A DNA stretch of 64,000 nucleotides from an uncultured bacterium (GTDB lineage Bacteria; Patescibacteriota; Minisyncoccia; UBA6257; 2-01-FULL-56-20): contig OY970382.1 of the NCBI GenBank assembly GCA_963719425.1, positions 135,888 through 199,887 of the forward strand, written 5' to 3'. A model generated the notes under the pieces. That model saw only the letters and a list, made by a program, of their open reading frames with translations, searched no databases and was not told where the DNA came from. The first letter of the stretch is position 1. Each line of letters opens with the position of its first letter. Positions 9,948-47,990 of this stretch are shown here, one piece after another. The translations under genes and the position numbers were made by a program.

Positions 9948-10147
9948 CACGCATTTTTTGAACCCGCTCGTGGCTTCGGAAAATCTAACTCGCTCACGAC
10001 GAAAATCTGCCACCCTCTCGCCTTCGGCGGGGGTCCCGGCAGATTTTCGGTTCGCTCGTTGATTTTCCTCGCCACTCCGCTAGGTTCTGCGAAATGCGTG
10101 CTACTCCCGCAGGACGCCTGCGCGTTGGGTCGGTGTATAATATAACC

Positions 10148-10639
10148 ATGGCTATTACATTAACACCTAGCGAGAAAAAGCTCGTTGAATATTCAAAAAG
10201 GGCTGTAGTGAGGTACAACAAGGTGCGCCACAGGAAGGGCGGTATCGATACGCTGTATTCATTTTTGATGTCGGATAGTGGGAAAATTTATGATGGCGCT
10301 TGTTTTGAGGCGAACATCAGCCATGCCGCCGTCTGCGGTGAGCGGCATGCCATTGCGAATATGATTATGAATGAATCCTATAGTGCTAGGATAAAAACCA
10401 TTGTGGTAGCGGACCCAGTTCCAAGGGTGCAGAAAAAAAGCACACCTCCGTGTGGCACCTGCAGGCACCTCATTTGGGCGTATGGGACGCCGGCCACGGC
10501 CGTCATTCTCATGCAGTACGTGCAGGGCAAAAAGGGATGGACATTTCCCAAAATGGAAAAATATACCATCAGAGATTTATATCCGCATCCATGCGAACCG
10601 GCCAATCAGAGCATTTGGGATAATTTTGTGCCGCAGTAA
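10148..10639 (+). CDS. cytidine/deoxycytidylate deaminase-family protein
   Basis: Zinc-binding motifs CGERHAI and PCGTCRH. Start re-chosen at ATG 10148, 6 nt after a TATAAT box (leaderless-like). Confidence 0.65.
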   Translation: MAITLTPSEKKLVEYSKRAVVRYNKVRHRKGGIDTLYSFLMSDSGKIYDGACFEANISHAAVCGERHAIANMIMNESYSARIKTIVVADPVPRVQKKSTPPCGTCRHLIWAYGTPATAVILMQYVQGKKGWTFPKMEKYTIRDLYPHPCEPANQSIWDNFVPQ

Positions 10640-10795
10640 AGAAAAACCTCTCGCAAGAGAGATTTTTCGTATGCCTGCTGTCAACCTTATTACGTCGACT
10701 GGGACTACCGCCCCGCAGGCATGTTTTTATGGTAGCGCGCGGCGTTGGGATGTCAACTGCTGTTTAATGATTTTTTAATGTTAGAATGAATCTAT

Positions 10796-11890
10796 ATGGC
10801 GGTGAAGTTTTTGAGTAAAACGAAGGGGAGCGCGCTCGCGGGGACGGCGCTTTTGCGACTGGATTTTAACACGGAGGACGATTGGCGGATGCGGGCGGTA
10901 CTACCCACGATCAAATTTTTATTGAAGCGTTCCTCAAAGATTGTGATCGTGAGCCACCGCGGGCGACCGAAAGGGTTTGAGAAAAAATTCAGCTTGCGGC
11001 GGGACGCGGCAATCCTCTCGCGGCTTTTAGGAAGGAAGGTTTCGTTTATTGGCCATTTTCGGTTTAGGGAAATAAAGCGTGTGGTCGCCGCTGCGCCGCG
11101 CGGTTCGGTATTCCTCCTGGAAAATTTGCGGTTCATGAAGGGGGAGGAGACGAACGATCCGCGGTTTGCGCGGCAGCTTGCATCACTCGCGGACTTTTAT
11201 GTGAACGATGCGTTCGCGGTCTCGCATCGGGCGAATGCTTCCATTGCCGCGATCACACGGTTCCTGCCAAGCTACGCGGGATTGGAGTTGGAGAACGAAA
11301 TCGTGTCGCTCTCGCGCGTAATGCGAAGGCCGAAGCATCCTCTGGTTCTCATTCTCGGCGGCGCGAAAGCGGCGGACAAGCTGGGTGTCATCAAATATTT
11401 CAGAACAAAGACAGATTGGTTTCTCTTGGGCGGTGGTCCGGCGAACACCGTTCTTTTTCTCAAGGGAATTGATGTTCAAGAATCCGTTCGCGATCGCGAT
11501 CCGAAGGATTTGAAAGAGCTCAAAACGGTCGCGAGTTACAAAAACATCGTTTTGCCGGACGATTTTGTCTGGCACGACGGCAGGGTCTGGGATATCGGTC
11601 CGAAAGCGGTCCAAATTTTCAGCAAAAAGATCGGCGAGGCACGCACGATTCTTTGGAGTGGACCGCTCGGCCTTATAGAACAGAGAAAATATGCACGCGG
11701 AAGCGTGGCCGTGGCACGCGCCGTCACGCGGAACCGGCGCGCGTTTTCCGTCGCGGGCGGCGGCGAGACCGTGATGTTCCTCAAAAAATACAAGCTGGAT
11801 AAGAAATTTAGTTTTATCTCTACCGGCGGCGGCGCGATGATTGATTTCCTGGCCGGAAAAAAGTTGCCGGGAATAGAGGCGTTGCGGTAA
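10796..11890 (+). CDS. pgk: phosphoglycerate kinase (divergent)
   Basis: Motifs IVSHRGRPKG, ENLRF, GGAKAADKLGVI, GGGPANTVL, DIGP, WSGPLGLIE, AGGGET. Confidence 0.8.
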   Translation: MAVKFLSKTKGSALAGTALLRLDFNTEDDWRMRAVLPTIKFLLKRSSKIVIVSHRGRPKGFEKKFSLRRDAAILSRLLGRKVSFIGHFRFREIKRVVAAAPRGSVFLLENLRFMKGEETNDPRFARQLASLADFYVNDAFAVSHRANASIAAITRFLPSYAGLELENEIVSLSRVMRRPKHPLVLILGGAKAADKLGVIKYFRTKTDWFLLGGGPANTVLFLKGIDVQESVRDRDPKDLKELKTVASYKNIVLPDDFVWHDGRVWDIGPKAVQIFSKKIGEARTILWSGPLGLIEQRKYARGSVAVARAVTRNRRAFSVAGGGETVMFLKKYKLDKKFSFISTGGGAMIDFLAGKKLPGIEALR

Positions 11891-11953
11891 AATATTCTGT
11901 TCACCACGTAACGCGCAGCGTGCCGGCGAATGAATGAGTGAGCAAAAAGACGG

Positions 11954-12898
11954 ATGAAATACGATATCTATTTTCACAATGATTTTGACGGCAGGGCGAG
12001 TGCCGCCGTGATGCTTGCTTTTTTGCGGAGCCGTGGCGACGACAATGAACGTTATGTTGCCATGACCTACGGGAGCGAGAAGGGATGGCTCCGGCAAGAC
12101 CTCACGAAGAAACGGAATCCGGCGATTGTCGTGGATTTCGTCTATCATCCGGGTACGACGTGGTGGTTTGATCATCATCCAACCACGTTCAGGAATAAAA
12201 AGTGGAAGCAGGCATTCAAACCGGACAAATTTCATTGCCATGACGCTTCGTATAAATCGGCGTGCCATCTTATCTACGACTCGCTCAAGAAAAATTTCGG
12301 ATGGAAGCCGCCGGCGCACTTCACGGAACTTGTGCGATGGCTTGATGTGATTGATGGCGCGATGTACCGTTCGCCGCGGGAAACGATTGAAATGAAGTCC
12401 CCGGCGCTTCGGATCAACGCCCTCATAGAAGCGGCGTCGCACACGGAGGCGGAGGATCGCTTTCTCATCGGGCTTCTCGCGGAGCGGCCGCTTGTGTGCG
12501 TGGTCGCAGTTCCCCGCATCGCACGTGCCATAAGCGCACTGCGGAAAAAAGTGCGGGAGAGCATGCGGTTCTACAAAACGAACCTCCGCGCTTTCGGGAA
12601 GGCGACGCTTATTGATGTGACGGACGATCCCTTGCGCGGACTTTTGCGCTTTGCGCCGTACTATTTTTATCCAAAGACCATTTACAGTTTCCGTTTGAGG
12701 AAAAAGGGACCCCGGGTGTGGTATCTCGGCGTGGGAGTCGCTCCGTGGCGGCGCGCGGCAAATCGGTTTGACCTGGGACTCCTCCTGCGGCGGCGCTACC
12801 GGGGGGGCGGGCACAAAGACGTGGCGGCGACGTCATTTAAAACGAAGGGAGATGCTGTGCGAGCGTTCAAGAAACTTAATGCATTGCTGAACCGATAA
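11954..12898 (+). CDS. DHH-family phosphoesterase (NrnA/RecJ-like)
   Basis: HNDFDGRASAAV (DHH motif I/II-like) and FDHHP (motif III). Confidence 0.55.
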   Translation: MKYDIYFHNDFDGRASAAVMLAFLRSRGDDNERYVAMTYGSEKGWLRQDLTKKRNPAIVVDFVYHPGTTWWFDHHPTTFRNKKWKQAFKPDKFHCHDASYKSACHLIYDSLKKNFGWKPPAHFTELVRWLDVIDGAMYRSPRETIEMKSPALRINALIEAASHTEAEDRFLIGLLAERPLVCVVAVPRIARAISALRKKVRESMRFYKTNLRAFGKATLIDVTDDPLRGLLRFAPYYFYPKTIYSFRLRKKGPRVWYLGVGVAPWRRAANRFDLGLLLRRRYRGGGHKDVAATSFKTKGDAVRAFKKLNALLNR

Positions 12899-12899
12899 C

Positions 12900-13514
12900 A
12901 TGGCGGCAAAGAGAAAGTGTTATGCCTACTTCGTGCCGAGCGAGAATCGGCAGGGGATAACCGACGATTGGGGCGAGTGTGAGGCAATCGTTTCGGGGAA
13001 AGTCGGCGCGCGGTATAAAGCGTTTGAAACACGCGAGGACGCGGAGCAGTGGCTTGCGCGCGGCGCGGTGTACGAGATTAAGAAGCCGCCGCCGAAGCTC
13101 GCGCGCGGCATCTATTTTGATGCAGGGACGGGCAGGGGCGAAGGAGTGGAGGTGAGCGTGACTGACGAGAAAGGAAAGAATCTGCTCCACAAGGCGCTTT
13201 CAAAAAAAGAACTCAATGACTTTGGGAAGCATTTGGTTGGTGATTCCTCGGCCACGAACAATTACGGCGAATTGTTGGCTTTAAAATACGCGCTCAAGAT
13301 TGCGCGGAAGGAGAAAGTGAAAAAAATATTCGGTGACAGCAGATTGGTGATTGACTATTGGTCGCGATGGCATATCAAGCGCAAAGAACTTCCGGAGGAA
13401 ACCGTGGCGCTCGCGCACGAGGTGGCGAAACTGCGCGAGAAATTTGAAAAAAATGGAGGGGTTGTGGCACGTATTTCTGGTGCGCACAACCCCGCAGATT
13501 TAGGGTTCCATTAG
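12900..13514 (+). CDS. rnhA: ribonuclease HI with N-terminal hybrid-binding (caulimovirus viroplasmin-like) domain
   Basis: N-terminal YAYFVPS...GIT..W...YKAFETREDAEQW domain. RNase H motifs GDSSATNNYGELLAL and ...GAHNPADLG. Confidence 0.7.
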   Translation: MAAKRKCYAYFVPSENRQGITDDWGECEAIVSGKVGARYKAFETREDAEQWLARGAVYEIKKPPPKLARGIYFDAGTGRGEGVEVSVTDEKGKNLLHKALSKKELNDFGKHLVGDSSATNNYGELLALKYALKIARKEKVKKIFGDSRLVIDYWSRWHIKRKELPEETVALAHEVAKLREKFEKNGGVVARISGAHNPADLGFH

Positions 13515-13801: not shown

Positions 13802-13911
13802 ATCTTTTCTCCTACTTGGATTTGTTTACCTCTGAGTTTAGGATAAGGAATTGCGCACGGTGTTTCAAGAGGCAAATTTGCCAAAATCTTGACTTGTGGT
13901 ACAATGCCCTT

Positions 13912-14336
13912 GCTGGCAATCCAGACGGTCGCTCGGTTGCGCCGCGCAAGCGGCGCCGGCCGGGAGGAAAGTCCGGACACCCACGCTTCGCCGCAAGGCG
14001 AAGGTTAAAACGGTAGCGGCTAACAGCCGCACGGCGAAAGCCGAGAGGTGCGATCAGTGACGCCCCGTTCCGAAAGGTTCGGGGGAGCCCGATCCCAAGC
14101 TAGACGGCTCAACTCCGCGATAGGGACAAGAAAGCGGAGGTGAAACGGCAAAACCCTTACCGGGTGCAAGGCCGCGCTCCGGCGAAAGTCGGAGAGTGCC
14201 GCACGAGCCCAGCACCATTTTTCACAAAATGGTGCTGGCCGAGCCCGCGAGCAATCAAGGGCCCAGAGAAATGACCGTCCCTCAGCTGCAGATTTTGCGG
14301 CTGGGCGACAGAATCCGGCTTACCGGATTGCCAAAA
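13912..14336 (+). ncRNA. rnpB: RNase P RNA (bacterial type A)
   Basis: Conserved P4 strands GGAAAGTCCGGAC (about 13967-13979) and ACAGAATCCGGCTTA (about 14308-14322). P1 pairing TGGCAAT/ATTGCCA at the ends. Extended -10 promoter TGgTACAAT at about 13896-13905. Terminator follows. Confidence 0.85.
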
Positions 14337-14337
14337 G

Positions 14338-14365
14338 CAAAAATGCCCCGCAAGGGGCATTTTTG
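14338..14365 (+). terminator. rho-independent terminator of rnpB
   Basis: Hairpin ATGCCCCGCAAGGGGCAT followed by TTTTT. Confidence 0.8.
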
Positions 14366-15016
14366 TTGAGGCAATACAAGGCGCACCGGCGCAACAATAA
14401 AAGACTTATGTGCTGCCCGACAAGGCGAGAAGAGGTTTTCTGTGCGCGCTCTGAACGTACTGAACCTACCACAGTGAGGCTTCACAAGCATCCTTTGGGG
14501 TCATTTTGAAAAATGAAAACAGCTCTCAGTAGCGTCCGTTATAAGGGGTTTTCAAGGAGCTTTGAGGGGTACAAACTGGACAAAGCGGACTCTATAGGGG
14601 CATTCCGGACGCGTCCGGTTTGACTGATTAAAAAAATTGTCGTCTTGTATTGGATGATGATATTGAGGACAGAAGAGACTGCCGCGAAGGGTACGACTTG
14701 CCTTTATATGCATAAGCCGTTCCGGCAATCTACATCTTACGGCTTGGTATGCGGCTTTATGATAGAAAAAAGAATATACTTGAAACAAGACGATATTGAT
14801 AAAAAGGATTTTACGGATAAGGCCGACGCATCGAACGGAAGCGAATATGCGATCGGAGAAAAGGAAGACCAATTCGACGGGACGGATTTGCCACTGCCAC
14901 GACCATTGAAATCGCCATAAAATGGACATTGTACATCTCAATCTGCAGGAAAATATATCATGAATCTATGGGTTTAATCGGCTTAGAGATTGGCAACTAC
15001 AGAAATCTCAATAGCA

Positions 15017-18000
15017 ATGAAAAGAAAAAATAAGAGAAAATTAAAAGAAAGTTGGAAAGCTATAGCAGGAATTGCGGTTATAGTAGGAATTCTTGAGGCC
15101 GTAGATGTATTTGCGGGAATTAATTTCAATAACTTCCCTCAGTGGGTCGTAGCCGAATGTGTCAAAAAGAATTACCCACTATGTGGTAACACTATAACTG
15201 TTCAAGCTATATGTCTTCTTGCTTCCATACTCTTAATACTCGGCATAATAGAACTTATTTCGGCTTCTTTAAAACAAAACAGAAAATATTTTGAATTAGT
15301 CGATTTCGAAAAACCAACTGGTGAAGTCAGAAGAGAGGCGCTTGAGGGAATCCTGAATTCAGAAAAAGCCAAGCCCTCGTTTGTGCATGTCGCCCCAATC
15401 AGTGAAGAAGTTGAGAGCTCTTTTAAGAAACTGGACAAAGAGGGCTTTCTTTGGATAAGCGGCAGGCCGGGTGAGGGGAAAACCATGCTGGCTTATCATG
15501 TTCTTTATAAATTCTTTAAGCAAGGATACAAAATCTATGAGCTTAAGACCGATCTCATCAATAAAGACCTTGTCAGTGACGAAAAGAAACTTGAACAGAT
15601 AGTCGGTGAATTAGATATTTTAAAGGGAGGCAAGAGAAAAATAATATTGATTGACGACGCGCATAAGCTTGAGCCGAAGTTTGAAGATGGCCTAATGTCT
15701 GAAATTAGAGATGAAGCAGAAGAAAAAATAAATGGAAAATTTTTTGGGATAGACACGAATTATTTGGGAACAAAGGAATTAGACCAATCCAGTTCAATCG
15801 CTCTTAACTTCGACGAATTTTACAAGACGACGTTTTTTAAAAAATTATACCAATCCGAAGACCCATTAATAAAAGAGGTTGTCGAAAATAGATGCATCAA
15901 TCTAGAGGGGGCGATTAAGCAAAAGGAAGTGGATCACGAAATAAAAGACCCGTGGCATTTTAACTTTATCGCTACCAAGGGAGAAGAAAGAATAACCGAG
16001 GCGTTAAACGACCTTGGCGGCGGGAATGAAGCAAAACGCAGAATATTAAGAATAGCAATATTTTTATTCTCGGTTCGGAATATAATTACGGGAGAAAAAG
16101 AAATTACCGAAATCGATTTTATTGATAAGGTGTTGCCAACTATCAATAATGAGTACGTTTATAATCCTTATCAGTCCGATCCCCTTAAGATAATCATTGA
16201 TTTAGTTCAGGAGAATCGCAGATTATTGATTATTAACGACGAAAGTTCCTTTCAGAGGAATCTCTTGAAAGCACCGCACTACAGATCGTCCATCGCAATT
16301 GTTAAACGGCTTACTGAACTATGTGACGAAAATGAAGTAGAGCGGATGATTGATGCCTCCAAGATATTTCTTAAAAACGATTATAAGGACAGCGCGTATC
16401 TCGGCGTTTATTTTTCCTCAATCGGAAAGTATCAAACGTATTTTCTTAACGAAAATAAGAACTGGGTTAAGGGCTTTTTGACCAACGTAATTGTTGAGCA
16501 ACTTCAAGTTTATCCCTTTTTCTTGAACATTCTGAGAGAGTATCATGAAGAATTTTTTAGAAAATTGATCACCGACGAATATTTTGATACTATTGCCCCT
16601 GAAATATCATCGTCTAGTGCCAATAAATTTAGCGCAATTGCGGCTTTCCTTACGGCTTTGAAAGACAAGAGGGGCGAACTTATCGGCAGATTGAACTTTG
16701 AAAAACTGGCTGAAGTGGCCAATAAGGCCGGGGCGGATCAACTCTCACAAGTAGCGGAATTCCTTGGAGCTTTGAAAGACAAGAGGGGCGAACTTATCGG
16801 CAGATTGAGCTTTGAAAAACTGGCTGGAGCGGCCAATAAGGCAACGGTGTATCAACTCAAGCAAGTAGCGGCTTTCCTTACGGCTTTGAAAGACAAGAGG
16901 GGCGAACTTATCGGCAGATTGAACTTTGAAAAACTGGCTGAAGTGGCCAATAAGGCCGGGGCGGATCAACTCTCACAAGTAGCGGAATTCCTTGGAGCTT
17001 TGAAAGACAAGAGGGGCGAACTTATCGGCAGATTGAGCTTTGAAAAACTGGCTGGAGCGGCCAATAAGGCCGGAGTGGACCAACTCGAACAAGTAGCGAA
17101 CTTTCTTCAAACATTGGGAAACGAGAGAAATAAACTCGTTGAGAAATTTGACTTTGAAAAACTGGCTGGAGCGGCCAATAAGGCAACGGTGTATCAACTC
17201 AAGCAAGTAGCGGCTTTCCTTACGGCCTTGGAAGACAAAAAGGGCGAACTTATCGGCAGATTGGACTTTGAAAAACTGGCCGAAGCGGCCAATAAGGCCG
17301 GAGTGGAGCAATTCGCGCAACTCGAAGCGATTTTAAATGTATTGGGAAACGAGAGAAACAAACTCATTGAGAAATTTGACTTTGAAAAACTGGCTGGAGC
17401 GGCCAATAAGGCAACGGTGTATCAACTCAAGCAAGTAGCGGACCTTCTAGGAGCTTTAAAAGACAAGAGGAAGAAACTTTCGCAATATTTCGTCACTGAA
17501 GTCATTTTACGTTATTCTAAATTATTAGGTAGAGATCAAATCCCTTCTTTTTGTATAATAGTGGCAAATTTGGATAAGCAGAAAAAAAATCAAGTAATCC
17601 AAAACATCGACTGGGCTTCCTTATTAGACTTGACGCCTATCAATCATCCCGATATCATTAAGCATCTTTCTTATATCCTAGACTACCACAATACAAAGTG
17701 CAATTTGCTTAATCAAGATGCAAATGATAAAAGAATACGAGATTATTTAAGTATCAATAGGAATAAGATTATTTATTTTTCTACTTGTTTGTTCTCGCCA
17801 CCGGACGGTTATCAAAGCGCTGCATATGTTTTGGATGCATTATACCCGCACGCGATTGACATTTCTAAAACAATTGTTGGAAACCTGGAATATAAAATAA
17901 TAAGCCAATTTAAGATTTCGCCTCTTTATTACCATAGTTTTTCACATTTGCTTGATGCTATCCATCGAATTCACCCTCCAGCAAGCAACGCTATTCTTTC

Positions 18001-18184
18001 GGATCGCTTGGTTTGGGAAAAACTTTACAGCTCACTTCAAGAGGATGATTTTAAAGACCACCAATATGGATTACAAAACTTAATCAACTCCATAAAGACC
18101 ATAAATCCTATTGGATACAATGAAATTATTGCCAATAAGATTATAAATCAAAAACTTTTGATATGTCATATTTTGACACATTAG
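15017..18184 (+). CDS. membrane-anchored P-loop NTPase (STAND/AAA-like) with C-terminal 38-aa helical tandem repeats
   Basis: Two N-terminal TM helices. Walker A ISGRPGEGKTM. Walker B KIILIDDAH. Eight or more repeats of FEKLAxxANKAxxxQLxQVAxFLxALKDKRGELIGRL. AT-rich composition. ORF track start 14990 is TTG. First ATG at 15017 used. Confidence 0.75.
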   Translation: MKRKNKRKLKESWKAIAGIAVIVGILEAVDVFAGINFNNFPQWVVAECVKKNYPLCGNTITVQAICLLASILLILGIIELISASLKQNRKYFELVDFEKPTGEVRREALEGILNSEKAKPSFVHVAPISEEVESSFKKLDKEGFLWISGRPGEGKTMLAYHVLYKFFKQGYKIYELKTDLINKDLVSDEKKLEQIVGELDILKGGKRKIILIDDAHKLEPKFEDGLMSEIRDEAEEKINGKFFGIDTNYLGTKELDQSSSIALNFDEFYKTTFFKKLYQSEDPLIKEVVENRCINLEGAIKQKEVDHEIKDPWHFNFIATKGEERITEALNDLGGGNEAKRRILRIAIFLFSVRNIITGEKEITEIDFIDKVLPTINNEYVYNPYQSDPLKIIIDLVQENRRLLIINDESSFQRNLLKAPHYRSSIAIVKRLTELCDENEVERMIDASKIFLKNDYKDSAYLGVYFSSIGKYQTYFLNENKNWVKGFLTNVIVEQLQVYPFFLNILREYHEEFFRKLITDEYFDTIAPEISSSSANKFSAIAAFLTALKDKRGELIGRLNFEKLAEVANKAGADQLSQVAEFLGALKDKRGELIGRLSFEKLAGAANKATVYQLKQVAAFLTALKDKRGELIGRLNFEKLAEVANKAGADQLSQVAEFLGALKDKRGELIGRLSFEKLAGAANKAGVDQLEQVANFLQTLGNERNKLVEKFDFEKLAGAANKATVYQLKQVAAFLTALEDKKGELIGRLDFEKLAEAANKAGVEQFAQLEAILNVLGNERNKLIEKFDFEKLAGAANKATVYQLKQVADLLGALKDKRKKLSQYFVTEVILRYSKLLGRDQIPSFCIIVANLDKQKKNQVIQNIDWASLLDLTPINHPDIIKHLSYILDYHNTKCNLLNQDANDKRIRDYLSINRNKIIYFSTCLFSPPDGYQSAAYVLDALYPHAIDISKTIVGNLEYKIISQFKISPLYYHSFSHLLDAIHRIHPPASNAILSDRLVWEKLYSSLQEDDFKDHQYGLQNLINSIKTINPIGYNEIIANKIINQKLLICHILTH
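16630..17480 (+). repeat. in-frame coding tandem repeat (114-bp unit; two successive 228-bp copies are nucleotide-identical)
   Basis: Stretches such as CTTTCCTTACGGCTTTGAAAGACAAGAGGGGCGAACTTATCGGCAGATTG... recur exactly at about 16643 and 16871. Protein-level 38-aa repeat. Confidence 0.8.
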
Positions 18185-18279
18185 AAAGTATTTTAAACGA
18201 GCACTAAAATGAGACACGCCATCGGAACGGACGTTATTAACTTATTGGAAAATGAGAATTTTTATTACATAATTCTCAT

Positions 18280-18474
18280 ATGAATGGATTAGAGCAATGG
18301 TTGATTTTGCTTATTGCAATCATCCTGATAGTACTTGCCCTCTCGGTTAAATTTCTCAGAAAGACCATGGGTTTGTTACTCGTTATCTTGGGTGGCCTTG
18401 CATGTTTGACGATAGTTGGTTTGATCATAGGTATCCCAATGATAATTATTGGTGGGATTTTCCTGTTTATTTGA
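18280..18474 (+). CDS. small two-TM membrane protein (hypothetical)
   Basis: 64 aa, almost entirely hydrophobic (LILLIAIILIVLAL / LLVILGGLACLTIVGLIIGIPMIIIGGIFLFI). Same strand, 95 nt downstream of the NTPase. Confidence 0.55.
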   Translation: MNGLEQWLILLIAIILIVLALSVKFLRKTMGLLLVILGGLACLTIVGLIIGIPMIIIGGIFLFI

Positions 18475-18500
18475 TTACGGATTGTGCCATAATTTTAACG

Positions 18501-19511
18501 ATGCAATACACTGTCCAAGCTACGACCACTATCTCCGTCGCAAGTAGTAATGGCGCAACGAGTTTATTAAATAGTCCGTTATCCGTTTCGCTTTTGGATG
18601 GTGCTATCGGATTAATACTGGCCGCATCAATTGCGGCATATGTCTCACTAAAGCAGATTGGATTTCAAAAAGTGAGAGATAATATTGAAAAGAGATATCT
18701 TGAAAACGGACTTGAAAAACTGATTAGCCACCTCAATTTTATTAGATTGGAATCAGAAGATACCTACGCTAGGGCCGTAAGTGTCGTACAGCATCTCAGA
18801 GATTTAAATAAAGAAGACTTTAAAAAATGGTTTCTCGCAATAAAACCGAAAGATTATAGGCATTCTTCTCCGGGGATGCCCGATTCGCTTATTACAACCG
18901 GAGCTTTCATAAAAGATAAATTGTTTCAGTATCTTGCTATTAAGATATCTTTAATCATCAATTCTTCCAGTGATTTCTTTACAACAGAATTTTTTAGATT
19001 GATCGAAAATGAATTTGAAAACGAACACGGGCTGTTCGAATTGAAAGCAAGGACAGAACCAAAGAAATGGAAAGAAATAATGGATAAAGTGAAGAATGAA
19101 CTCACCCGACACCACAACCAAAATGCCCCCGTTTATGAACTAGTACCGGTACTCGAATTGATTTTAATCAGGTTAAGAGAACTCAATCTCCACTCATATA
19201 AAAAATTTATTGAAAAAGCTCGAAGTGATGAAAAAATTTTAGGCTACTATAACGATATAAAAAATATTCTTCTGAAAGATATTACCAACTCCTATGCGAC
19301 GATCCTTGAGTATATTTCATTATTGGAACAAAAAAGAGGTGATCAGTTGCGGCCGTTTAAAGAACAGGATTTGGCAGGGCTCACTTCTGATGTAGAAAAA
19401 ATATCCTCTAATACTCCACTAACGGATAATGAGATTATAGCAATAGAGCAAAAGATAGACGAAGCAATAATTCAGCTACGATGGATAATGGGCGGGGTCA
19501 TCGTGGTATAG
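18501..19511 (+). CDS. hypothetical membrane-anchored protein, Lys/Glu-rich helical
   Basis: One predicted TM (GAIGLILAASIAAYVSL) followed by charged helical region. Alternative ATG at 18402 overlaps previous gene out of frame. AT-rich island gene. Confidence 0.5.
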   Translation: MQYTVQATTTISVASSNGATSLLNSPLSVSLLDGAIGLILAASIAAYVSLKQIGFQKVRDNIEKRYLENGLEKLISHLNFIRLESEDTYARAVSVVQHLRDLNKEDFKKWFLAIKPKDYRHSSPGMPDSLITTGAFIKDKLFQYLAIKISLIINSSSDFFTTEFFRLIENEFENEHGLFELKARTEPKKWKEIMDKVKNELTRHHNQNAPVYELVPVLELILIRLRELNLHSYKKFIEKARSDEKILGYYNDIKNILLKDITNSYATILEYISLLEQKRGDQLRPFKEQDLAGLTSDVEKISSNTPLTDNEIIAIEQKIDEAIIQLRWIMGGVIVV

Positions 19512-19627
19512 AAAAACTAGAATATAGAATTAATCGCATTATCCCTAAGATAGGTTTTGACGTTGTCTGTTACCCCGGGGAGAGAAACAAATATTCGGAT
19601 CAATTATCTCTAAACGAAGGTTTTTCA

Positions 19628-19658
19628 GGGCTTACTGTCCGCCCTACATGACAGAATG
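19628..19658. repeat. 31-nt repeat, copy 1 of 2 (GGGCTTACTGTCCGCCCTACATGACAGAATG)
   Basis: 27/31 identity to 20471-20501. Brackets the pnuC-like gene. Confidence 0.6.
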
Positions 19659-19674
19659 AACATACTATTGCGCT

Positions 19675-19705
19675 GGCCATCTGGTACGAAGTTGGAACCG
19701 CCTTA
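19675..19705. repeat. 31-nt repeat, copy 1 of 2 (GGCCATCTGGTACGAAGTTGGAACCGCCTTA)
   Basis: 29/31 identity to 58106-58136. Both copies abut AT-rich islands. Confidence 0.6.
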
Positions 19706-19740
19706 ATGAAAGCAGAAGGCGCATTTACACGCGCTTGAGT

Positions 19741-19780
19741 AAGAAAAAAGAAAACCGCACATATTACTGCGTCGTGCGGT
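19741..19780 (-). terminator. rho-independent terminator of pnuC-like gene
   Basis: Hairpin ACCGCAC...GTGCGGT overlapping stop codon. T-run on minus strand (A-run 19741-19754 on plus). Confidence 0.7.
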
Positions 19781-20351
19781 TTCTGCGCTCCATAATGAAC
19801 GCATCAACAATGAATCCGAGCGAAATTGCTTGTTGGAGAGCTAGCCATGGATAGTGTTCTCTCCACATGAGCCATCCACATGAAAGGTTCATGATCATGA
19901 ACCAAAGATACCCGACTGGATGTTTCTTTTCGTCTTTGACGGCGAGTAGATAGGTTCCAATGAGGTACCCGGCGGTCAGCCCCAGTTCGAGGAACTGGTT
20001 CAATGTTGTTAACCCTCCAAAATCGTACAGGCTGTAGGCAGTGCCTATGGCCACGCACGCGAGCGCGAGATAATTGAGCCATTTCGGCGACTTGCGGACG
20101 CTACTTTTGAGCGCAATCGTGAGCCCCAAGACCATCGAGGGCAATCCTCCGAGTTCGAGCGAGGCCGCTATCCAGTTGTGCTCGAAAATGAAGATAAATG
20201 CCCACGCCGGAAGCCCAAGGATATATACAATCCACGACCAGATGCGCCACAACCTTTTTGCCTCGCTGTTTTTCCCTCTTTCTGTGAAAGAGAAAAAAAC
20301 CTTATTGAGGAGATAGAATATACCTCCCCACAATTGCAGAAATGCACGCAC
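19764..20351 (-). CDS. PnuC-like nicotinamide riboside transporter family membrane protein
   Basis: 195 aa, about 7 TM, Trp-rich pattern resembling PnuC. GTG start preceded by GGAGGGGG SD. Confidence 0.5.
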   Translation of the reverse strand: MRAFLQLWGGIFYLLNKVFFSFTERGKNSEAKRLWRIWSWIVYILGLPAWAFIFIFEHNWIAASLELGGLPSMVLGLTIALKSSVRKSPKWLNYLALACVAIGTAYSLYDFGGLTTLNQFLELGLTAGYLIGTYLLAVKDEKKHPVGYLWFMIMNLSCGWLMWREHYPWLALQQAISLGFIVDAFIMERRNRTTQ

Positions 20352-20392
20352 GGCTGCTCACCCCCTCCATCTTCGTATTGTCGATAACTGTC

Positions 20393-20429
20393 TGAAAACA
20401 TAATAGCACATTTCTGTGCTATTAGTCAA
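20393..20429 (-). promoter_or_regulatory. sigma70-like promoter of pnuC-like gene with palindromic operator in spacer
   Basis: Minus strand TTGACT-18 nt-TATTAT. Spacer contains perfect palindrome AATAGCACA-GAAA-TGTGCTATT (plus coordinates 20402-20423). Confidence 0.5.
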
Positions 20430-20457
20430 GGTGCTGGCGGACCTGGATTCGAACCAG
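20430..20457 (-). other. tRNA-like 3' fragment (T-arm plus acceptor 3' strand), not a complete tRNA
   Basis: Minus-strand CTGGTTCGAATCCAGGTCCGCCAGCACC resembles tRNA/tmRNA T-arm and 3' end. No matching 5' half or cloverleaf found. Confidence 0.5.
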
Positions 20458-20470
20458 TCTTAAATCTAAT

Positions 20471-20501
20471 GGGCTTACTATCCTCCCCACATGACAGAAG
20501 G
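20471..20501. repeat. 31-nt repeat, copy 2 (GGGCTTACTATCCTCCCCACATGACAGAAGG)
   Basis: Imperfect direct repeat of 19628-19658. Confidence 0.6.
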
Positions 20502-20545
20502 GGTCTTATAGATTGCTACCCTGCGCTATAATAGTAAGAATATCA

Positions 20546-20719
20546 ATGATTAAAAAAATCAAAGGGAAATACATGGTACTTTCGGAGAAAACGGGCCGTT
20601 CATTCGGAAGCTATGCCACGAAAGCCGAGGCAGCGCACCGCCTCCGCCAGATTGAATTTTTTAAACACATGAAAAGTGGTAGCGGACCTTCTGATGGAAG
20701 AAAGCGAAAGCGCCCTTGA
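20546..20719 (+). CDS. hypothetical small protein
   Basis: 57 aa from ATG 20546 (MIKKIKGKYMVLSEKTGRSFGSYATKAEAAHRLRQIEFFKH...). Overlaps next gene by 26 nt. Confidence 0.35.
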   Translation: MIKKIKGKYMVLSEKTGRSFGSYATKAEAAHRLRQIEFFKHMKSGSGPSDGRKRKRP

Positions 20720-21137
20720 TCAGATCATGTTGAAATTAGAACAGGACGAATTTGAGAAACTTATACAGGAGGGGATATGCGCGATTCCGGAAAAGTTCCT
20801 GCGGAAACTGGCCAACGTGTCGATTGTGATCGGCGACGAGCCGACGCCGGCCCAGCGAAAGAAACTGGATCTCCCTCCGGGATCGACGCTCCTTGGCCTG
20901 TACGAAGGAGTGCCGCAGGTATCGCGGGGAGCGAACTATTCCGCTGTGCCTCCCGACAAGATCACCATCTTTCAGAGGCCGATCGAAGCCGGGGCCGCCG
21001 ATCGGGAAGATATGAAGAAGATTGTGAGAGATGTGGTGTGGCATGAAATTGCTCACCATTTTGGCATGGACGAATCCCGCGTGCGCCGAGCGGAAGCCAA
21101 CAGGCGGAAGCTTCGTCGGTCTAGAATCAATTCTTAG
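20694..21137 (+). CDS. zincin-like minimal metallopeptidase family protein
   Basis: C-terminal HEIAHHFG motif (HExxH). Start re-chosen at ATG 20694. ORF track begins at GTG 20676. Confidence 0.55.
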   Translation: MEESESALDQIMLKLEQDEFEKLIQEGICAIPEKFLRKLANVSIVIGDEPTPAQRKKLDLPPGSTLLGLYEGVPQVSRGANYSAVPPDKITIFQRPIEAGAADREDMKKIVRDVVWHEIAHHFGMDESRVRRAEANRRKLRRSRINS

Positions 21138-21188
21138 AAAGCCATTACCACATTCAAAGATTAACCAGTTTCTCTTGGCCGATAAAGA

Positions 21189-22224
21189 TCATCTTAGGCG
21201 GTAATGTTTGAATTTTTTTATCAATTCGAGCAGCTCTTGTTCACCTTTTCTTAAAGTCAAATGAACAAGAGTTGGCTGGTTCGGCAAAACATATTCCATA
21301 AACCCTTGTTCCTTTTTTCCATTGACCCAAACTGTGAGCGGCCCTTCCCAATAATTGACTACGCCGAAATTCACCTCGCATTCTTTAATGATCGGCCGGG
21401 TTTTAATTATGTAATTTTTCAATTTAATTTCCCATTCCAGCTCGTAGGCGAGGCCGCTCACCGGACTTTTCCAGATCTTTCCCGCCGGTGTGAAGCTTAC
21501 CTCACAATTTTCTTGTTTGTTGTCCGGGTGGAGCAGGTAGGCTTTTCTTTTCCCTTGGTAATTGATACAGACCAGTTCGGTATTATCCGACATCTGGATA
21601 GAAAACCAAACCCAAGCGTCGTCGTCGGCCGCGGTCAGATTGAACCATTGCCTATCGTGCCAAACTTTCCCCTTGACCCGATCTTTGCCGACATACCCCG
21701 TAGTTTCTAGATTGGTATAAGAATAATAGTAGGTTTTTTTTCTTGCCGTAATCCACAAAACCAGCCCTGCCTTCAAGTAGGGGCTTTTTTGTCTGTCTGC
21801 AGAATAGGTCTACAAATCGGTTTTTTATTCGCAAAATTTTTCCCCACCTGGCGATTTCGTAATCCGCAAAATTTTTCCGAAAAGGAGAGTGATAGTTTAT
21901 GAAAAGGTCCTTTTTCTGAAAACTGTCCCGGGAAGGAACAACTATCGGGAGTATTTCCGCATGGACTTTCTTATTTTTTAGGTCAAAGAGGATAGCGTGC
22001 GAAAAAAACAATTCTTTGATCGGCAGTTTTAAAAACGGGATCTTGACTTTTTTGCCCTTCACTCTGAAAAGGCAGTTCATGAACGCGTACCGGCGTTCGC
22101 CTTTTAAAAATCCGTTGAAGTACCACCACTCGCCGTCGTAGCTTCTGTGAATCGATTCGTCTTTTGGAAGCGTAATTCTCGGTTTCATGATCGGGAACGC
22201 TTTATAAAAAGTTGTGGGTCGCAC
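21189..22224 (-). pseudogene. AttH/CrtC-like lipocalin-domain gene, frameshifted at A8 homopolymer
   Basis: ORFs 21652..22224 (LPKDESIHRSYDGEWWYFNGFL motif) and 21189..21776 overlap in different frames across an 8-nt A run (plus-strand T-run 21734-21741). Confidence 0.6.
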
Positions 22225-22366
22225 TGAAAAAATATTCTTGTGGAGGCGGAAGGAACCTCACTGCTCGGCCGATAAGATCGGCCTGCGCTTTGGCACCCTC
22301 GGTGCCGAACTGTCGCGTCAGAACGCGACCCTCCTACACGGCTCTTATGTTGAGCACGTTCCGTTT

Positions 22367-22762
22367 TTATTCCACTTTCTCTCCAAACGCCTCGTCCTCG
22401 GCGTCCATCTCCGCGTCGTGCTTCGTCTTATGGATCCTGCCGTCTATGTGGTTCGGAGGGGAGTAGATGGTGAAGATTTTAAGCGATTCGCTCCCGGTGT
22501 TCACAAAATTATGCTTGACGCCCGGAGTTACAACAACCACGTCTCCCGTCCGGTATGGTTGCTCTTTTCCGTCAAGCACCGCCTTTCCCTCGCCGTGCAG
22601 GAGAAAAAGAGTTTGCTCAACGTGCGCATGGGTTTCCTCGCCGATGTCCTCTCCCGGCTTGATGTCCATCACGACAAGTTGGCACTTTTGTCCCGTGAAA
22701 AGCACCTTCCGGAAATACGCGTTCTTCTGCGTTTCCTCAATGTAATTGTCCGAATATGGCAT
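22367..22762 (-). CDS. cupin-domain protein
   Basis: 131 aa. HAHVEQTLFLLHGEG...VVVTPGVKHNFVNTG matches cupin two-motif pattern. Confidence 0.6.
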   Translation of the reverse strand: MPYSDNYIEETQKNAYFRKVLFTGQKCQLVVMDIKPGEDIGEETHAHVEQTLFLLHGEGKAVLDGKEQPYRTGDVVVVTPGVKHNFVNTGSESLKIFTIYSPPNHIDGRIHKTKHDAEMDAEDEAFGEKVE

Positions 22763-22861
22763 GGTATTGGTTATAGTTCATCAACCGACCTTTCTCCGCT
22801 TCATCTGTCTTTAATAGTTTAGCGCATCGGGCCTGATTTTTCATTTGTTACAATAGAGTCA

Positions 22862-25363
22862 ATGATCACCGAAGCGCCGGATCCGGAAGCGCTCGCGAAA
22901 AAGACACCGGAGGAGCTGTACCGCGCCCTTGGAACTTCTGCGAAAGGGCTTACGCAAATAGAGGCGGCGCGGCGGCTTGCGCAGTACGGACCCAACGAAT
23001 TTGCGGGGAGGAAAAAGCTCCGGCCGCTTTTCATTTTTTTCTCAAAGTTCAGGAGTCCGCTTCTCCTTTTGCTTATCGCCGCAGCGCTCGTCTCCGGCGC
23101 GCTCGGCTCGCGGTTTGAGGCAGGCGTGATCCTCGTAATCGTGCTTGTGAGCGCACTCATTGATTTCATAAATACCTACAAGTCGGCGAAGGCGGCCGAA
23201 GAACTGCAGCAGCGGGTAAGCATCACCGCCGCAATTCTCCGCGGGGGCGAGCTCAAGGAGCGGAATATCCGCGACATCGTGCCTGGCGACGTGTTTGCGC
23301 TTGAGGCGGGCGACCTCGTGCCGGCGGACGGAATCCTTCTTGAAGCGAAAGACCTCTTTTTGAACGAGAGTGTGCTGACGGGGGAGTCGCTTCCTGTGGA
23401 AAAAGAACCTGCCGCGGCGCCCGAAGCGCGGATACTATTCTTAGGCACGAGCGTGGTTTCGGGCAAGGGCCTCGCGGTCGCCGCAGTCACGGGGACGAGA
23501 ACGAGAATGGGCGGCATTGCGGACAAGCTCAAGCGTCCCGAGACGCCTACGGAATTTGAAAAGAACCTGAAGGATTTCAGTTTATTCATTTTCCGCATGA
23601 CGCTTTTCCTCGTGCTCGCCGTGATCCTTTTGAACATTTTTATCATTAAGCACGATCCGCTGCAGATATTTTTGTTCGCCGTCGCGATCGCGGTGGGCCT
23701 TACGCCGGAGCTTCTGCCTCTCATCGTCACGAGCAATCTCGCGAAAGGCGCGCTCCGGATGGAGAAAGGCGGCGTGATCGTAAAGAAGCTCGCTGCGCTC
23801 CACAACTTCGGGAGCATTGACGTGCTTTGCACGGACAAGACCGGCACGCTCACTGAGGACCGCATCACGCTTATCAAGTGCATTGACGCTGCGGGGAACG
23901 AAAGCGAGGAGGTGTTGTTCTTCGGGTATTTAAGCAGCAGGAATCTTACCGGCGTCCGCGGCGTGCTGGACCACGCGATTGAGGCGTACCGGAAAGTAGA
24001 TATCGCGGGTTGGGAAAAGGTGGATGAGGTGCCGTTTGACGCCGAGCGGCGGTTGGAATCGGTCGTGGTTGCAAAAGGGAATGAAACGGTCCTCGTTGCG
24101 AAGGGCGCGCCGGAAAACATTTTGAAAAATACTGAGGGGCTCACCGAAACGGACCGTGAAAAGATCATCCATGAGTATGAGGCACTCTCAAGCGACGGTT
24201 TCCGCGTGCTCGGCGTGGGAGTAAAGAACGTTCCGCGGCGGGGGACTTCCTATACCAAAGACGACGAGCGGGGGCTCGCGTTCAAAGGATTCCTTGCTTT
24301 CCTTGATCCGCCAAAACACACCGTGAAGGACGTTCTCAAAAAGATGGCCGACCATAACGTGGCGATAAAGATCATTACGGGGGATAACTTCTTGGTGACG
24401 AAGAAAATTGCCGAGGAGATCGGGCTTCCCATTACGGGGGCGCTCGCAGGGGATGAGCTTGCGCAGCTGGACGAGCATCAGCTGAAGGCGAGGGTGGAGT
24501 CGGCAAACGTATTCACGCGCGTGACGCCGGAACAGAAGGAGACGATCATCACCGCGCTCCGCGGGAACGGCCATGTGGTTGCCTACATGGGCGACGGCGT
24601 GAATGACGTGCTTTCCCTGCGGGCTGCGGACGTGGGCATTTCCGTCCAGAACGCGGTGGACATCGCGAAAGAAACCGCGGACATCATCCTTATGAGAAAG
24701 GGCCTCCGTGAAATTATTGAGGGCGTGGTGGAAGGGCGCCGGACCTTCGCGAATACTTTTAAATACTTAATGATGGCGCTCTCTTCCAACTTCGGCAACA
24801 TGTTCAGCATGCCTATCGCGTCGGTGTTCCTGCCGTTTCTGCCTATGACCGCGCCGCAGATATTGTTGAACAACCTGCTCTACGATTCTTCCCAGCTCGC
24901 GATCCCTTTTGACAATGTGGAAAAGGAATTCCTTGCGCGCCCGAAGAAGTTTGATATCGGTTTTATGAAAAAATTCATGATTATCTTCGGGCCGTTGAGT
25001 TCCTGTTTTGACTTCGTAACATTCGGCGTGCTTTTCTTTGTACTCCGTGCGGCGGGCGGCGCGTTCCAGACGGGATGGTTTCTGGAGTCCATTGCCACAC
25101 AGACGTTCGTCGTCGGCATCATACGGAACCGCGGCCGTTTTTGGAAAACGCCGCCGAGTTGGGAATTGGCCGCAAGCACCGTTGCCGCGGTCGTCGTCGC
25201 CTGGATCATCCCGTATTCGCTCCTTGGCCCCGCGTTCGGATTCGTACGGTTCGGCTGGCTGCCGCTTGCGCTCATCGCGTGCATCGTCGCGGCGTATCTT
25301 GCGGCTGTTGAGATCGCAAAAAAATATTTCTACCGGAAGTACGGGAATTTAATAGAGAAATAA
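22862..25363 (+). CDS. mgtA: Mg2+-importing P-type ATPase
   Basis: 833 aa. DKTGTLT phosphorylation site, TGDN, MGDGVNDV hinge, 10 TM. N-terminal LTQIEAARRLAQYGPNE typical of MgtA. Confidence 0.85.
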   Translation: MITEAPDPEALAKKTPEELYRALGTSAKGLTQIEAARRLAQYGPNEFAGRKKLRPLFIFFSKFRSPLLLLLIAAALVSGALGSRFEAGVILVIVLVSALIDFINTYKSAKAAEELQQRVSITAAILRGGELKERNIRDIVPGDVFALEAGDLVPADGILLEAKDLFLNESVLTGESLPVEKEPAAAPEARILFLGTSVVSGKGLAVAAVTGTRTRMGGIADKLKRPETPTEFEKNLKDFSLFIFRMTLFLVLAVILLNIFIIKHDPLQIFLFAVAIAVGLTPELLPLIVTSNLAKGALRMEKGGVIVKKLAALHNFGSIDVLCTDKTGTLTEDRITLIKCIDAAGNESEEVLFFGYLSSRNLTGVRGVLDHAIEAYRKVDIAGWEKVDEVPFDAERRLESVVVAKGNETVLVAKGAPENILKNTEGLTETDREKIIHEYEALSSDGFRVLGVGVKNVPRRGTSYTKDDERGLAFKGFLAFLDPPKHTVKDVLKKMADHNVAIKIITGDNFLVTKKIAEEIGLPITGALAGDELAQLDEHQLKARVESANVFTRVTPEQKETIITALRGNGHVVAYMGDGVNDVLSLRAADVGISVQNAVDIAKETADIILMRKGLREIIEGVVEGRRTFANTFKYLMMALSSNFGNMFSMPIASVFLPFLPMTAPQILLNNLLYDSSQLAIPFDNVEKEFLARPKKFDIGFMKKFMIIFGPLSSCFDFVTFGVLFFVLRAAGGAFQTGWFLESIATQTFVVGIIRNRGRFWKTPPSWELAASTVAAVVVAWIIPYSLLGPAFGFVRFGWLPLALIACIVAAYLAAVEIAKKYFYRKYGNLIEK

Positions 25364-25379
25364 GCAGGAAACGACCGAG

Positions 25380-25859
25380 CTAGCTGATATCTTTCTCGTG
25401 CTGCCGTTCCAGCCGCTCGGAGATGTCCATCTTGCGGAGGAAGTAGAGGACGAGGGTGATGAGAATGGTGGCGACAATGGCGAAATAGAATATGCCGAGG
25501 CCCGCGAGGATGCCGATGGCTGCGGTCATCCAGACAAGTGCGGCGGTCGTGAGGCCCCGAGGATGATCCCCCATTTTTATGATGAGCCCAGCGCCCAGAA
25601 ATCCGATGCCGACGCCGATGTTCGCGATGATGCCGAAGCTGTTCGTTTGTGCCAGGAGATCGGGCACACCGCCGGACATCTCGCCTGCGATGTAGGGGAG
25701 CAAAAGTCCGATCATCGCGAACATGGAAGCGCCGCCTGCGACGATCATCTCTGTCCGCACGCCAGCCTCTTTACCGACGAGTTCGCGTTCCACGCCCAAG
25801 ATCGTGCCGAGGACGAGCGCGACCACTAACCGCACGAGCATTTGTTCAAACGTCAACAT
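25380..25859 (-). CDS. mgtC: MgtC/SapB family membrane protein
   Basis: LGTILGVEREL...motif. Start re-chosen at internal ATG (MLTFEQ). ORF track extends to 26057. Confidence 0.7.
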   Translation of the reverse strand: MLTFEQMLVRLVVALVLGTILGVERELVGKEAGVRTEMIVAGGASMFAMIGLLLPYIAGEMSGGVPDLLAQTNSFGIIANIGVGIGFLGAGLIIKMGDHPRGLTTAALVWMTAAIGILAGLGIFYFAIVATILITLVLYFLRKMDISERLERQHEKDIS

Positions 25860-25879
25860 TATATTAATATTAGCATATT

Positions 25880-25957
25880 GGCGGCGTGCGTTCCTGGGCT
25901 TTTGTCCGTGAGTACCGAGAAGGGCTGCTGTCCAAAATCTCAGGAACGCACGCCGCC
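25880..25957. promoter_or_regulatory. 17-bp perfect inverted repeat hairpin in mgtC/aspS divergent leader region
   Basis: GGCGGCGTGCGTTCCTG (25880-25896) and CAGGAACGCACGCCGCC (25941-25957), 44-nt loop, ends 16 nt before aspS ATG. Confidence 0.5.
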
Positions 25958-25973
25958 GAGATGCCACATTATT

Positions 25974-47903: not shown

Positions 47904-47990
47904 TACCTCAATTCTACCAGAATAGGAAAAACCTACGCCTCTCGGTCTGCCCGGCACTCATATTTGTATGGTATCCTAGGAAAGAAACGG

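Follow-up and report, generated by a model that had tools for sequence, protein, structure and literature searches.

The locus described here raises the question of what an AT-rich island of about 5 kb contributes to the genome of an uncultured bacterium of the Patescibacteriota, and whether its largest gene encodes an antiviral protein. The island lies in a stretch of 64,000 nucleotides (positions 135,888 to 199,887 of contig OY970382.1, GenBank assembly GCA_963719425.1), hereafter called the window, to which all coordinates below refer unless another contig is named. It carries three genes in the same orientation on the plus strand, namely open reading frame (ORF) 1, ORF2 and ORF3, which an earlier reading made from the letters of the DNA (the sequence-only reading) had taken for a candidate three-gene defence system. 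The analysis showed that ORF1 (15017–18184) codes for a STAND-type NTPase (signal transduction ATPase with numerous domains) of 1055 aa, which has a membrane anchor at its N-terminus and a presumed sensor made of repeats, and that ORF2 and ORF3 are independent passengers and not components of an ORF1 system. As for the function, we give about even weight to the reading that ORF1 is a stand-alone, Avs-like single-protein antiviral sensor, which would act through its transmembrane (TM) hairpin and which sits on an island of mosaic acquired cargo.

Architecture and family of the ORF1 protein

The start codon of ORF1, ATG at 15017, is backed by the conserved MKRKxKR N-terminus of the homologues. 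A Kyte-Doolittle scan placed an N-terminal TM hairpin at 15059–15250 (TM1, residues 15–33; TM2, residues 60–78) and found nothing hydrophobic enough after the Walker A motif. Because eight lysine or arginine residues precede TM1, the hairpin is predicted to be N-in/C-in, and the remainder of the protein is expected to be cytoplasmic. The hairpin is followed by a nucleotide-binding oligomerisation domain (NOD) module (residues 88–545, 15278–16651), which consists of a conserved pre-P-loop segment, a P-loop nucleotide-binding domain and helical and winged-helix-like domains. The Walker A motif GRPGEGKT (residues 149–156, 15461–15484) and the Walker B motif ILIDDAH (residues 210–216, 15644–15664) were read from the sequence, and in an alignment of 14 homologues the residues G149, P151, G152, G154 and K155 of the former and L211, D213, D214, A215 and H216 of the latter are invariant. 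The gene coordinates, the protein length, the two TM helices and both motifs that the sequence-only reading had given were found to be correct.

Residues 523–826 (16583–17494) form an array of eight two-helix units of 38 aa, the first of which is degenerate, as judged from Tandem Repeats Finder (TRF) and the structural model. TRF reported a period of 114 nt with 7.2 copies at 16646–17470, i.e., seven clear units and one degenerate unit, in agreement with the eight or more repeats counted earlier. In the model the array is predicted to be an alpha-solenoid, and it is presumed to be the sensor. The number of repeats differs between the aligned homologues. At the DNA level, the units at residues 561–598 and 637–674 are 100% identical and those at residues 599–636 and 713–750 are 96% identical. 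A two-unit block of 228 nt is duplicated at 96–100% DNA identity (16700–17140), which indicates either unequal recombination in the very recent past or an error of assembly, and the repeat count of ORF1 could be distorted by short-read assembly. The protein ends with a C-terminal domain (residues 827–1055, 17495–18184) that is helical in the secondary structure of the model and is kept in the full-length homologues (alignment columns 1001–1257). The AlphaFold2 model based on the 14-sequence alignment had a mean predicted local distance difference test (pLDDT) score of 80, with values above 90 in the repeats and the C-terminal domain and of 65–85 in the NOD.

The P-loop region of ORF1 scored 40.2 bits with the Pfam family nSTAND3 (PF20720), for which the cutoff is 27.2, and matched AAA, NPHP3_N and nSTAND5 more weakly. 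The NCBIfam search gave nothing meaningful. Within the family, nSTAND3 was matched by 12 of the 14 aligned members and NPHP3_N, weakly, by ten. The NTPase domain of Avs5 is likewise nSTAND3 (10.1101/2025.07.08.663546). As the fold search with the full-length model was dominated by importin-type HEAT solenoids (with EfAvs5 at rank 3, and Avs4), a model of the NOD (residues 88–545, pLDDT 76) was built and searched separately. The top five Foldseek matches of this model were EfAvs5, NLRP14, NLRC4, AVAST5 and NLRP9, followed at lower ranks by ORC/Cdc6, FtsH, Clp and plant NLRs (ZAR1 and NRC3 among the matches); the fold-match scores were modest. Several features that mark membership of the STAND superfamily are present in ORF1, i.e., a Walker A motif of the form GxxxxGK[ST], a Walker B motif that ends in two acidic residues, a match to a STAND-specific sequence model, a fold composed of the nucleotide-binding, helical and winged-helix domains, and C-terminal repeats. 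Based on the nSTAND3 match, the Foldseek matches and the limited reach of the sequence profile, ORF1 belongs to the STAND NTPases, and its NOD has its nearest, though distant, counterpart in Avs5. The combination proposed from the sequence, in which a STAND-type NTPase is joined to a repeat sensor and a membrane anchor, was thereby upheld, with nSTAND3 above its cutoff and EfAvs5 and animal NLRs as the top folds.

The nearest NOD fold thus belongs to Avs5, or AVAST type 5, a SIR2-STAND protein (EfAvs5, PDB 9jap; AVAST5 filament, PDB 9nc9). However, ORF1 is not an Avs5, because it has no SIR2 domain (Pfam, NCBIfam and PADLOC). Its N-terminus is an 85-residue, true two-TM hairpin, whereas Avs5 has an enzyme that bears a helix of amphipathic or hydrophobic character. 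The sequence kinship of the two is limited to about 50 residues around the P-loop, and the Avs models of PADLOC were unmatched. The repeats of ORF1 are a distinctive 38-aa unit and not TPR, Sel1 or PPR.

With the TM or pore-forming Avs and STAND proteins, such as TM-type Avs7, ORF1 shares an N-terminal membrane element, a STAND NOD and a helical repeat sensor. TM or pore-forming N-terminal STAND effectors are mentioned in the introduction of PMC13001434 and in the legend to Extended Data Fig. 2 of PMC13581612. The TM-type Avs7 proteins are variants inside clades with other sensors or NODs, while in the ORF1 family the hairpin is constant in most members. The earlier statement that no named system corresponds to ORF1 therefore needs to be divided: the ORF1 clade matches only the candidate system PDC-S73, at the P-loop (PADLOC), but TM and pore-forming STANDs are already in the literature (PMC13001434, PMC13581612). 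Membrane-effector STANDs are a known kind, and the ORF1 family is a separate small clade within it.

The Tmn/KAP proteins, which act in phage defence (PMC13001434), are like ORF1 single-polypeptide membrane P-loop NTPases with helical arms or repeats. In Tmn, two TM helices interrupt the P-loop domain, whereas both TM helices of ORF1 lie upstream of Walker A. The TM helices of KAP NTPases are said to have been placed within the P-loop domain by Aravind et al. in 2004. Elsewhere, four KAP TM helices are placed outside the P-loop domain (PMC13001434). Neither placement amounts to an N-terminal hairpin, and ORF1 has two TM helices only. Membership of ORF1 in Tmn/KAP was ruled out on the position of its TM helices, the lack of a KAP match in Pfam or PADLOC and of a Tmn match in PADLOC, and the STAND/NLR fold of its NOD. 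The resistosomes of plant coiled-coil (CC) NLRs, such as ZAR1 and NRC3, resemble ORF1 in the combination of a STAND NOD with a repeat sensor, and their N-terminal helices form a membrane channel on oligomerisation. These helices remain soluble as long as the plant protein is inactive, but ORF1 is predicted to sit in the membrane at all times, and the analogy is one of mechanism only.

The ORF1 family is small. A word-indexed search of 5.8 billion proteins yielded 16 clusters of homologues, and an exhaustive search of 1.84 billion representatives with a hidden Markov model (HMM) of the NOD yielded 75 matches at E ≤ 1e-3. In almost all members the NOD starts at residue 70–100, and most have 5–10 lysine or arginine residues ahead of TM1. 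At least two hydrophobic segments upstream of Walker A were present in 39 of the 48 long members examined. Distant members (24–28% identity), e.g., P0015 from Aliifodinibius, keep the hairpin, the ILNSEK..P.FVH.AP segment and the repeats of about 38 aa. The hydrophobic segments and the basic residues ahead of them hold in most members down to about 27% identity. As the TM hairpin is retained both in the distant members and in most long ones, it is a defining part of the protein. The family is distinct in that its profile misses other STANDs at E ≤ 1e-3, its two-TM N-terminus is constant, its 38-aa repeat unit is distinctive, and the models of known defence systems fail to match it, apart from a hit to the candidate PDC-S73 that is confined to the P-loop.

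Taxonomy is known for a minority of the family members. The taxon-labelled close relatives of ORF1 all come from metagenome-assembled genomes of Bacteroidota (Flavobacteriaceae, two Prolixibacteraceae, Ferruginibacter and Sphingobacteriales), and in a neighbour-joining tree of the NOD, calculated with no bootstrap, the ORF1 protein falls within or beside the Bacteroidota clade, where it forms a basal pair with a sequence from a metagenome. ORF1 is 35–46% identical to the sampled relatives, and the GC content of its gene is 0.39, compared with 0.28–0.36 in most Bacteroidota copies. In each of the nine loci compared, the AT content of the homologue exceeds that of the flanking DNA, by 0.03–0.19. 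A phage origin of ORF1 was also considered and was dropped on account of the IMG/VR result given below and of PHROGs matches that were repeat-driven noise.

Possible modes of action

In the characterised antiviral STANDs, the C-terminal repeats bind a phage protein, the NOD then oligomerises and the N-terminal effector is switched on (PMC13001434, PMC13581612). Pore-forming membrane proteins are among the bacterial STAND effectors (PMC13001434), and Avs5 requires an N-terminal hydrophobic membrane-localising helix, which stations PaAvs5 at the membrane (10.1101/2025.07.08.663546). By analogy with these proteins, we infer ligand sensing, oligomerisation, membrane damage and an antiviral role for ORF1. 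The basic N-terminus and the TM hairpin would hold the protein in the cytoplasmic membrane, with the NOD, the repeats and the C-terminal domain facing the cytoplasm. An invader-derived protein would be bound by the repeat and C-terminal region, and this binding would free the NOD for ATP binding and oligomerisation. Oligomerisation would in turn cluster the TM hairpins, and the clustered hairpins would breach or depolarise the membrane, by which the infection would be aborted.

The genomic context of the homologues is suggestive of such a role, as defence-type neighbours occur at about half of the homologue loci, and the defence role raised by the sequence-only reading is plausible on this ground. 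The context scan covered 68 neighbouring ORFs at ten distinct loci and relied on single-HMM matches in a small sample with no formal enrichment test. A Type IIG restriction-modification gene (1253 bits) begins 166 nt downstream of the homologue in L009, a protein with HEAT/ARM and caspase-like parts is encoded 1.65 kb upstream in L012, and a viperin-like radical SAM gene (1.6e-22) lies 1.1 kb downstream in L008, with a baeRF gene further on. The candidate system PDC-S63 is located 1.1 kb upstream of the homologue in L020, and a PIN toxin-antitoxin pair is found near that in L002. In the isolate Aliifodinibius salicampi (L023, JAJNDC010000002.1, 1906–7787), the gene of P0015 stands at the end of an integrase island with a tyrosine integrase, an HTH_17 excisionase, a replication-like protein and, directly upstream of P0015, an AAA_15/AAA_21 and DUF4276 pair. 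The arrangement of this pair is one that we take to resemble two-gene defence systems.

Several results weigh against an antiviral sensor of the Avs type. At about half of the homologue loci (L001, L003, L004, L013) the neighbours are housekeeping genes or genes of unknown function, and no relative of ORF1 was found in the IMG/VR viral contigs. The nSTAND3 match of ORF1 spans only positions 7–55 of the 155 positions of the profile. When compared with PDB sequences, the family profile reached none of the solved Avs or STAND chains, its best match being a dipeptidase with E 0.054, and PADLOC (E ≤ 1) gave for ORF1 only the P-loop-limited candidate PDC-S73 (2.5e-8) and mad8 (0.011). The slot in which the island lies contains no integrase or recombinase, and no direct repeats flank the island. 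In the AlphaFold2 model the TM region has a pLDDT of about 50, and the sequences of the TM helices are poorly conserved, so that a pure anchoring role is equally possible. Finally, only 198 of 589 STAND clades are defence-associated (PMC13581612).

This last figure also underlies an explanation that we regard as possible, although on the unlikely side, in which ORF1 would be a non-immune, membrane-tethered STAND ATPase serving as a signalling switch or scaffold and only incidentally mobile. A non-immune role is possible because most STAND clades (391 of 589, interspersed with the defence clades) are not defence-associated (PMC13581612). It would also be in line with the lack of a recognisable enzymatic effector domain in ORF1 (Pfam, PADLOC and NCBIfam) and with the position of several homologues among SusC/SusD, ammonium-transport or sugar-metabolism genes. 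However, the family is very rare and patchy (75 of the 1.84 billion proteins searched), and at every one of the nine loci its gene has a higher AT content than the flanking DNA. The gene is also missing at the syntenic site of close relatives, and the repeat array turns over fast. The recurrent restriction-modification, viperin-like, caspase-like, toxin-antitoxin and integrase-island neighbours also speak against it, as does the result of the Pfam search, in which the output domains usual in regulatory STANDs, whether DNA-binding or other, were absent from ORF1.

In a tentative extension of the antiviral reading, to which we assign a rather low probability, the ORF1 family would form a class of bacterial resistosomes that are constitutively inserted in the membrane. 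They would sense an invader protein by means of the 38-aa repeat array, which is rapidly reshuffled, and their hairpins would form a channel when the NOD oligomerises. The copy in the window would then have crossed from a Bacteroidota-like donor into an ultra-small episymbiont of the candidate phyla radiation (CPR).

An arrangement that we consider clearly unlikely is that ORF1 is an immune sensor in which the hairpin only localises the protein to the site of phage entry, and the output is runaway ATP hydrolysis or an effector acting in trans. The N-terminal hydrophobic helix of Avs5 serves purely for localisation (10.1101/2025.07.08.663546), and Tmn shows that a membrane NTPase need not act by lysis but can work by turning over ATP and exporting ions (PMC13001434). 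The weak conservation of the TM helices and the low confidence of their model would fit this arrangement as well. On the other hand, ORF1 has neither another candidate effector domain nor a conserved partner, and two helices with a short external loop are kept in most members, which goes beyond the needs of a simple anchor.

The neighbouring genes ORF2 and ORF3

ORF2 (18280–18474, plus strand) codes for a 64-aa protein of the DUF5362 family (Pfam, 27.4 bits against a cutoff of 25). The Kyte-Doolittle scan found two hydrophobic segments in it, in accordance with the two-TM protein described earlier. ORF3 (18501–19511, plus strand), whose start is backed by homologues that begin with MQY, codes for a helical protein with a single N-terminal hydrophobic region, presumably its anchor. 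Its description as a membrane-anchored protein was retained, but its length is 336 aa and not 337, and it is not rich in lysine and glutamate, which together make up a moderate 16% of the residues. Searches with ORF3 against Pfam, NCBIfam, PADLOC and PHROGs returned nothing significant.

According to the sequence-only reading, the three genes would constitute one defence system, with the NTPase as the sensor and the two membrane proteins as the effectors. The genes are indeed co-oriented and closely spaced (gaps of 95 nt between ORF1 and ORF2 and of 26 nt between ORF2 and ORF3), they share an AT-rich composition, and membrane segments are predicted in all three proteins. The comparison with other genomes gave a different picture. 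In the 18 loci with ORF1 homologues that were fetched with their flanks from metagenomes and GTDB genomes, tblastn with ORF2 and ORF3 found zero homologues within the flanks, and an all-against-all comparison of the ORFs of the homologue loci revealed no conserved neighbour besides a Y1 transposase in two of them. The homologues of ORF3 formed three clusters only, and the two with genomic context (L014 and L015) are accompanied by neither the NTPase nor ORF2. Moreover, members of the ORF1 family, with a TM hairpin of their own, have no need for a separate membrane effector. As there is neither co-occurrence nor a conserved neighbour, the three-gene system is unsupported and very improbable, and ORF1 stands alone.

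Both genomic contexts of the ORF3 homologues contain a large serine recombinase (L014, 1–4013; L015, 1605–3014), which suggests that ORF3 travels as cargo on an integrative element or prophage. In L014, genes for an N6/N4 DNA methyltransferase and a DUF5681 protein are present as well.

The island, its slot and its significance

The composition profile of the window drops from a GC content of 0.55–0.58 to 0.34–0.40 across approximately 14750–19750. The 5-kb segment from 14751 has the lowest GC of the entire 64-kb window (0.384), while the 5-kb segments outside this region have a mean of 0.534, a standard deviation of 0.02 and a minimum of 0.486, and thus the island proper (14750–19750) deviates by about seven standard deviations. 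At the level of genes, the GC content is 0.389 in ORF1 and 0.364 in ORF3, against 0.50–0.60 in most other genes of the window. The sharp drop of about 5 kb and the rnpB gene to its left had been noted correctly in the sequence-only reading, whereas the gene on the right (19764–20351, minus strand), coding for a 195-aa multi-TM protein that had been called pnuC-like, gave no Pfam PnuC match at E ≤ 0.01.

The aspartyl-tRNA synthetase (AspRS) encoded in the window is 80% identical to proteins of Candidatus Liptonbacteria and Parcubacteria, and its identity to those of other CPR groups is lower. The source contig measures 887,956 bp, which corresponds to an entire CPR genome, and together with the AspRS match this identifies the host as a CPR bacterium of the Parcubacteria type. 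Two contigs of related CPR bacteria (L021 and L022), whose AspRS is 85% identical, were used for the comparison of synteny. In the blastn analysis, the window regions 10633–13512, 13897–14333 and 22368–27368 aligned to L021 at 70–78% nucleotide identity, and nothing in between aligned. L022 shares both flanks and rnpB with the window in the same range of identity. Between rnpB and a block with cupin and P-type ATPase genes, L021 and L022 have only a MerR/HTH_17 gene and small ORFs. The test is decisive: because both contigs share the flanks and rnpB with the window but have no island, the island was acquired horizontally. The foreign nature claimed for it was therefore borne out by composition and synteny alike, as it does not occupy a conserved syntenic core position (L021 and L022 are without it), and its GC content of 0.384 differs from the 0.534 of its surroundings.

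The island is part of a lineage-specific variable slot (14339–22367) that extends from rnpB to the cupin/P-type ATPase block and measures 8.0 kb in the window and about 1.15 kb in L021. Because the locus differs between the window, L021 and L022, the slot adjacent to rnpB seems to act as a variable hotspot for integration in this lineage of CPR bacteria. Its conserved left anchor, rnpB (13913–14338, plus strand), encodes the class A bacterial RNase P RNA and is 77–78% identical in DNA between the window and the two related contigs. The window copy matched the full Rfam model RF00010 with 77.4 bits (E 2.7e-23), below the gathering score of 100. The copy in L022 (1913–2345) scored 95 bits, which is also sub-gathering, and that in L021 (4869–5281) scored 111 bits, above the threshold. 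These sequence scores point to a divergent rnpB in the lineage.

Bacteroidota have been proposed as gene donors to Patescibacteria, and a pairing of the two has been suspected from aquifer metagenomes (PMC12455944). It is extremely improbable that the island is instead an assembly or binning chimera, in which a Bacteroidota fragment was misjoined into a CPR contig. A chimera would be in keeping with the Bacteroidota affiliation of all close relatives of ORF1, with the abrupt change in composition and with the 114-nt repeat units, since identical units of this kind are easily misassembled. Against it, the island lies inside an 888-kb contig and has CPR-homologous sequence on both sides, ORF1 is only 35–46% identical to its sampled relatives and has a GC of 0.39 that is above most Bacteroidota copies (0.28–0.36), and the slot also contains other non-syntenic genes at host-like GC.

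At the right edge of the AT-rich stretch, the left copy of a 29-nt direct repeat (19628–19656, plus strand) was found. The right copy (20471–20499) accounts for the 5' portion of a degenerate, tRNA-like remnant (20432–20499, minus strand) with the T-arm CTGGTTCGAATCCAG. The T-arm-like fragment lies at about 20432–20465 on the minus strand, and a hairpin and a T-run follow the remnant (20395–20493). The two copies differ by three mismatches, and no such pair is expected by chance. The repeat scars and the T-arm fragment reported earlier at this edge are thus present, but the repeats bracket only the neighbouring gene at 19764–20351 and not the island. The remnant was called neither by ARAGORN nor by the Rfam tRNA model; it may have been left behind by an old integration event in a tRNA gene. 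In the same variable slot, two overlapping ORFs in different frames on the minus strand (21189–21776 and 21652–22224) jointly cover a CrtC/AttH-like lipocalin, the N-terminal part of CrtC being in one of them and the C-terminal part together with Lipocalin_9 in the other. The pair is probably a frameshifted gene or a pseudogene.

Elsewhere in the window, a gene for an 801-aa HerA/VirD4/TraG-like ATPase (7542–9947, plus strand; PADLOC mad8, 2e-15, and HerA, 5.5e-9) is located upstream of ORF1, at a distance of about 5 kb. It is flanked by a gene for a 566-aa low-GC protein without a family match (5801–7501) and one for a deaminase-like protein (10094–10639), and this region could be another accessory or defence-like module. 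The 566-aa protein has two paralogues (44325–46115 and 46122–47957). The three proteins, of 566–611 aa, have no Pfam match and are about 40% identical to a 346-aa protein encoded beside rnpB in L022 (312–1352); they look like a lineage-specific multi-copy family. A second AT-rich islet (57463–59668) includes a 317-aa gene with a GC of 0.37 (58181–59134). The HicAB pair seen there earlier is present as a HicA/HicB-like pair (57463–58011) just below the Pfam cutoffs, but the islet is unrelated to the island and 38 kb away, and the excisionase-like motif is a weak HTH_17-like match (59387–59488, E 0.002). A single ORF of 809 aa (50300–52729, plus strand) carries the glucose-6-phosphate dehydrogenase domains G6PD_N and G6PD_C fused to the 6-phosphogluconate dehydrogenase domains NAD_binding_2 and 6PGD.

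The island is a concrete instance of gene flow from Bacteroidota to Patescibacteria. If ORF1 is an active immune receptor, its family would represent a compact clade of single-protein STANDs, with about 75 representatives at 50% identity and an output built in as a TM hairpin. It would then offer a simple model for the coupling of NOD oligomerisation to membrane damage, a question common to plant resistosomes and to the defences of the Tmn/PifA type. CPR bacteria, or Patescibacteria, have few recognisable defence systems per genome, possibly because those that they do have are as yet undescribed (PMC12259885), and ORF1 would be an addition to this poorly charted immune repertoire. Should the resistosome reading be true, the gene would provide a CPR episymbiont with a one-gene abortive-infection system, and its origin might hint at the physical host or partner of this bacterium.

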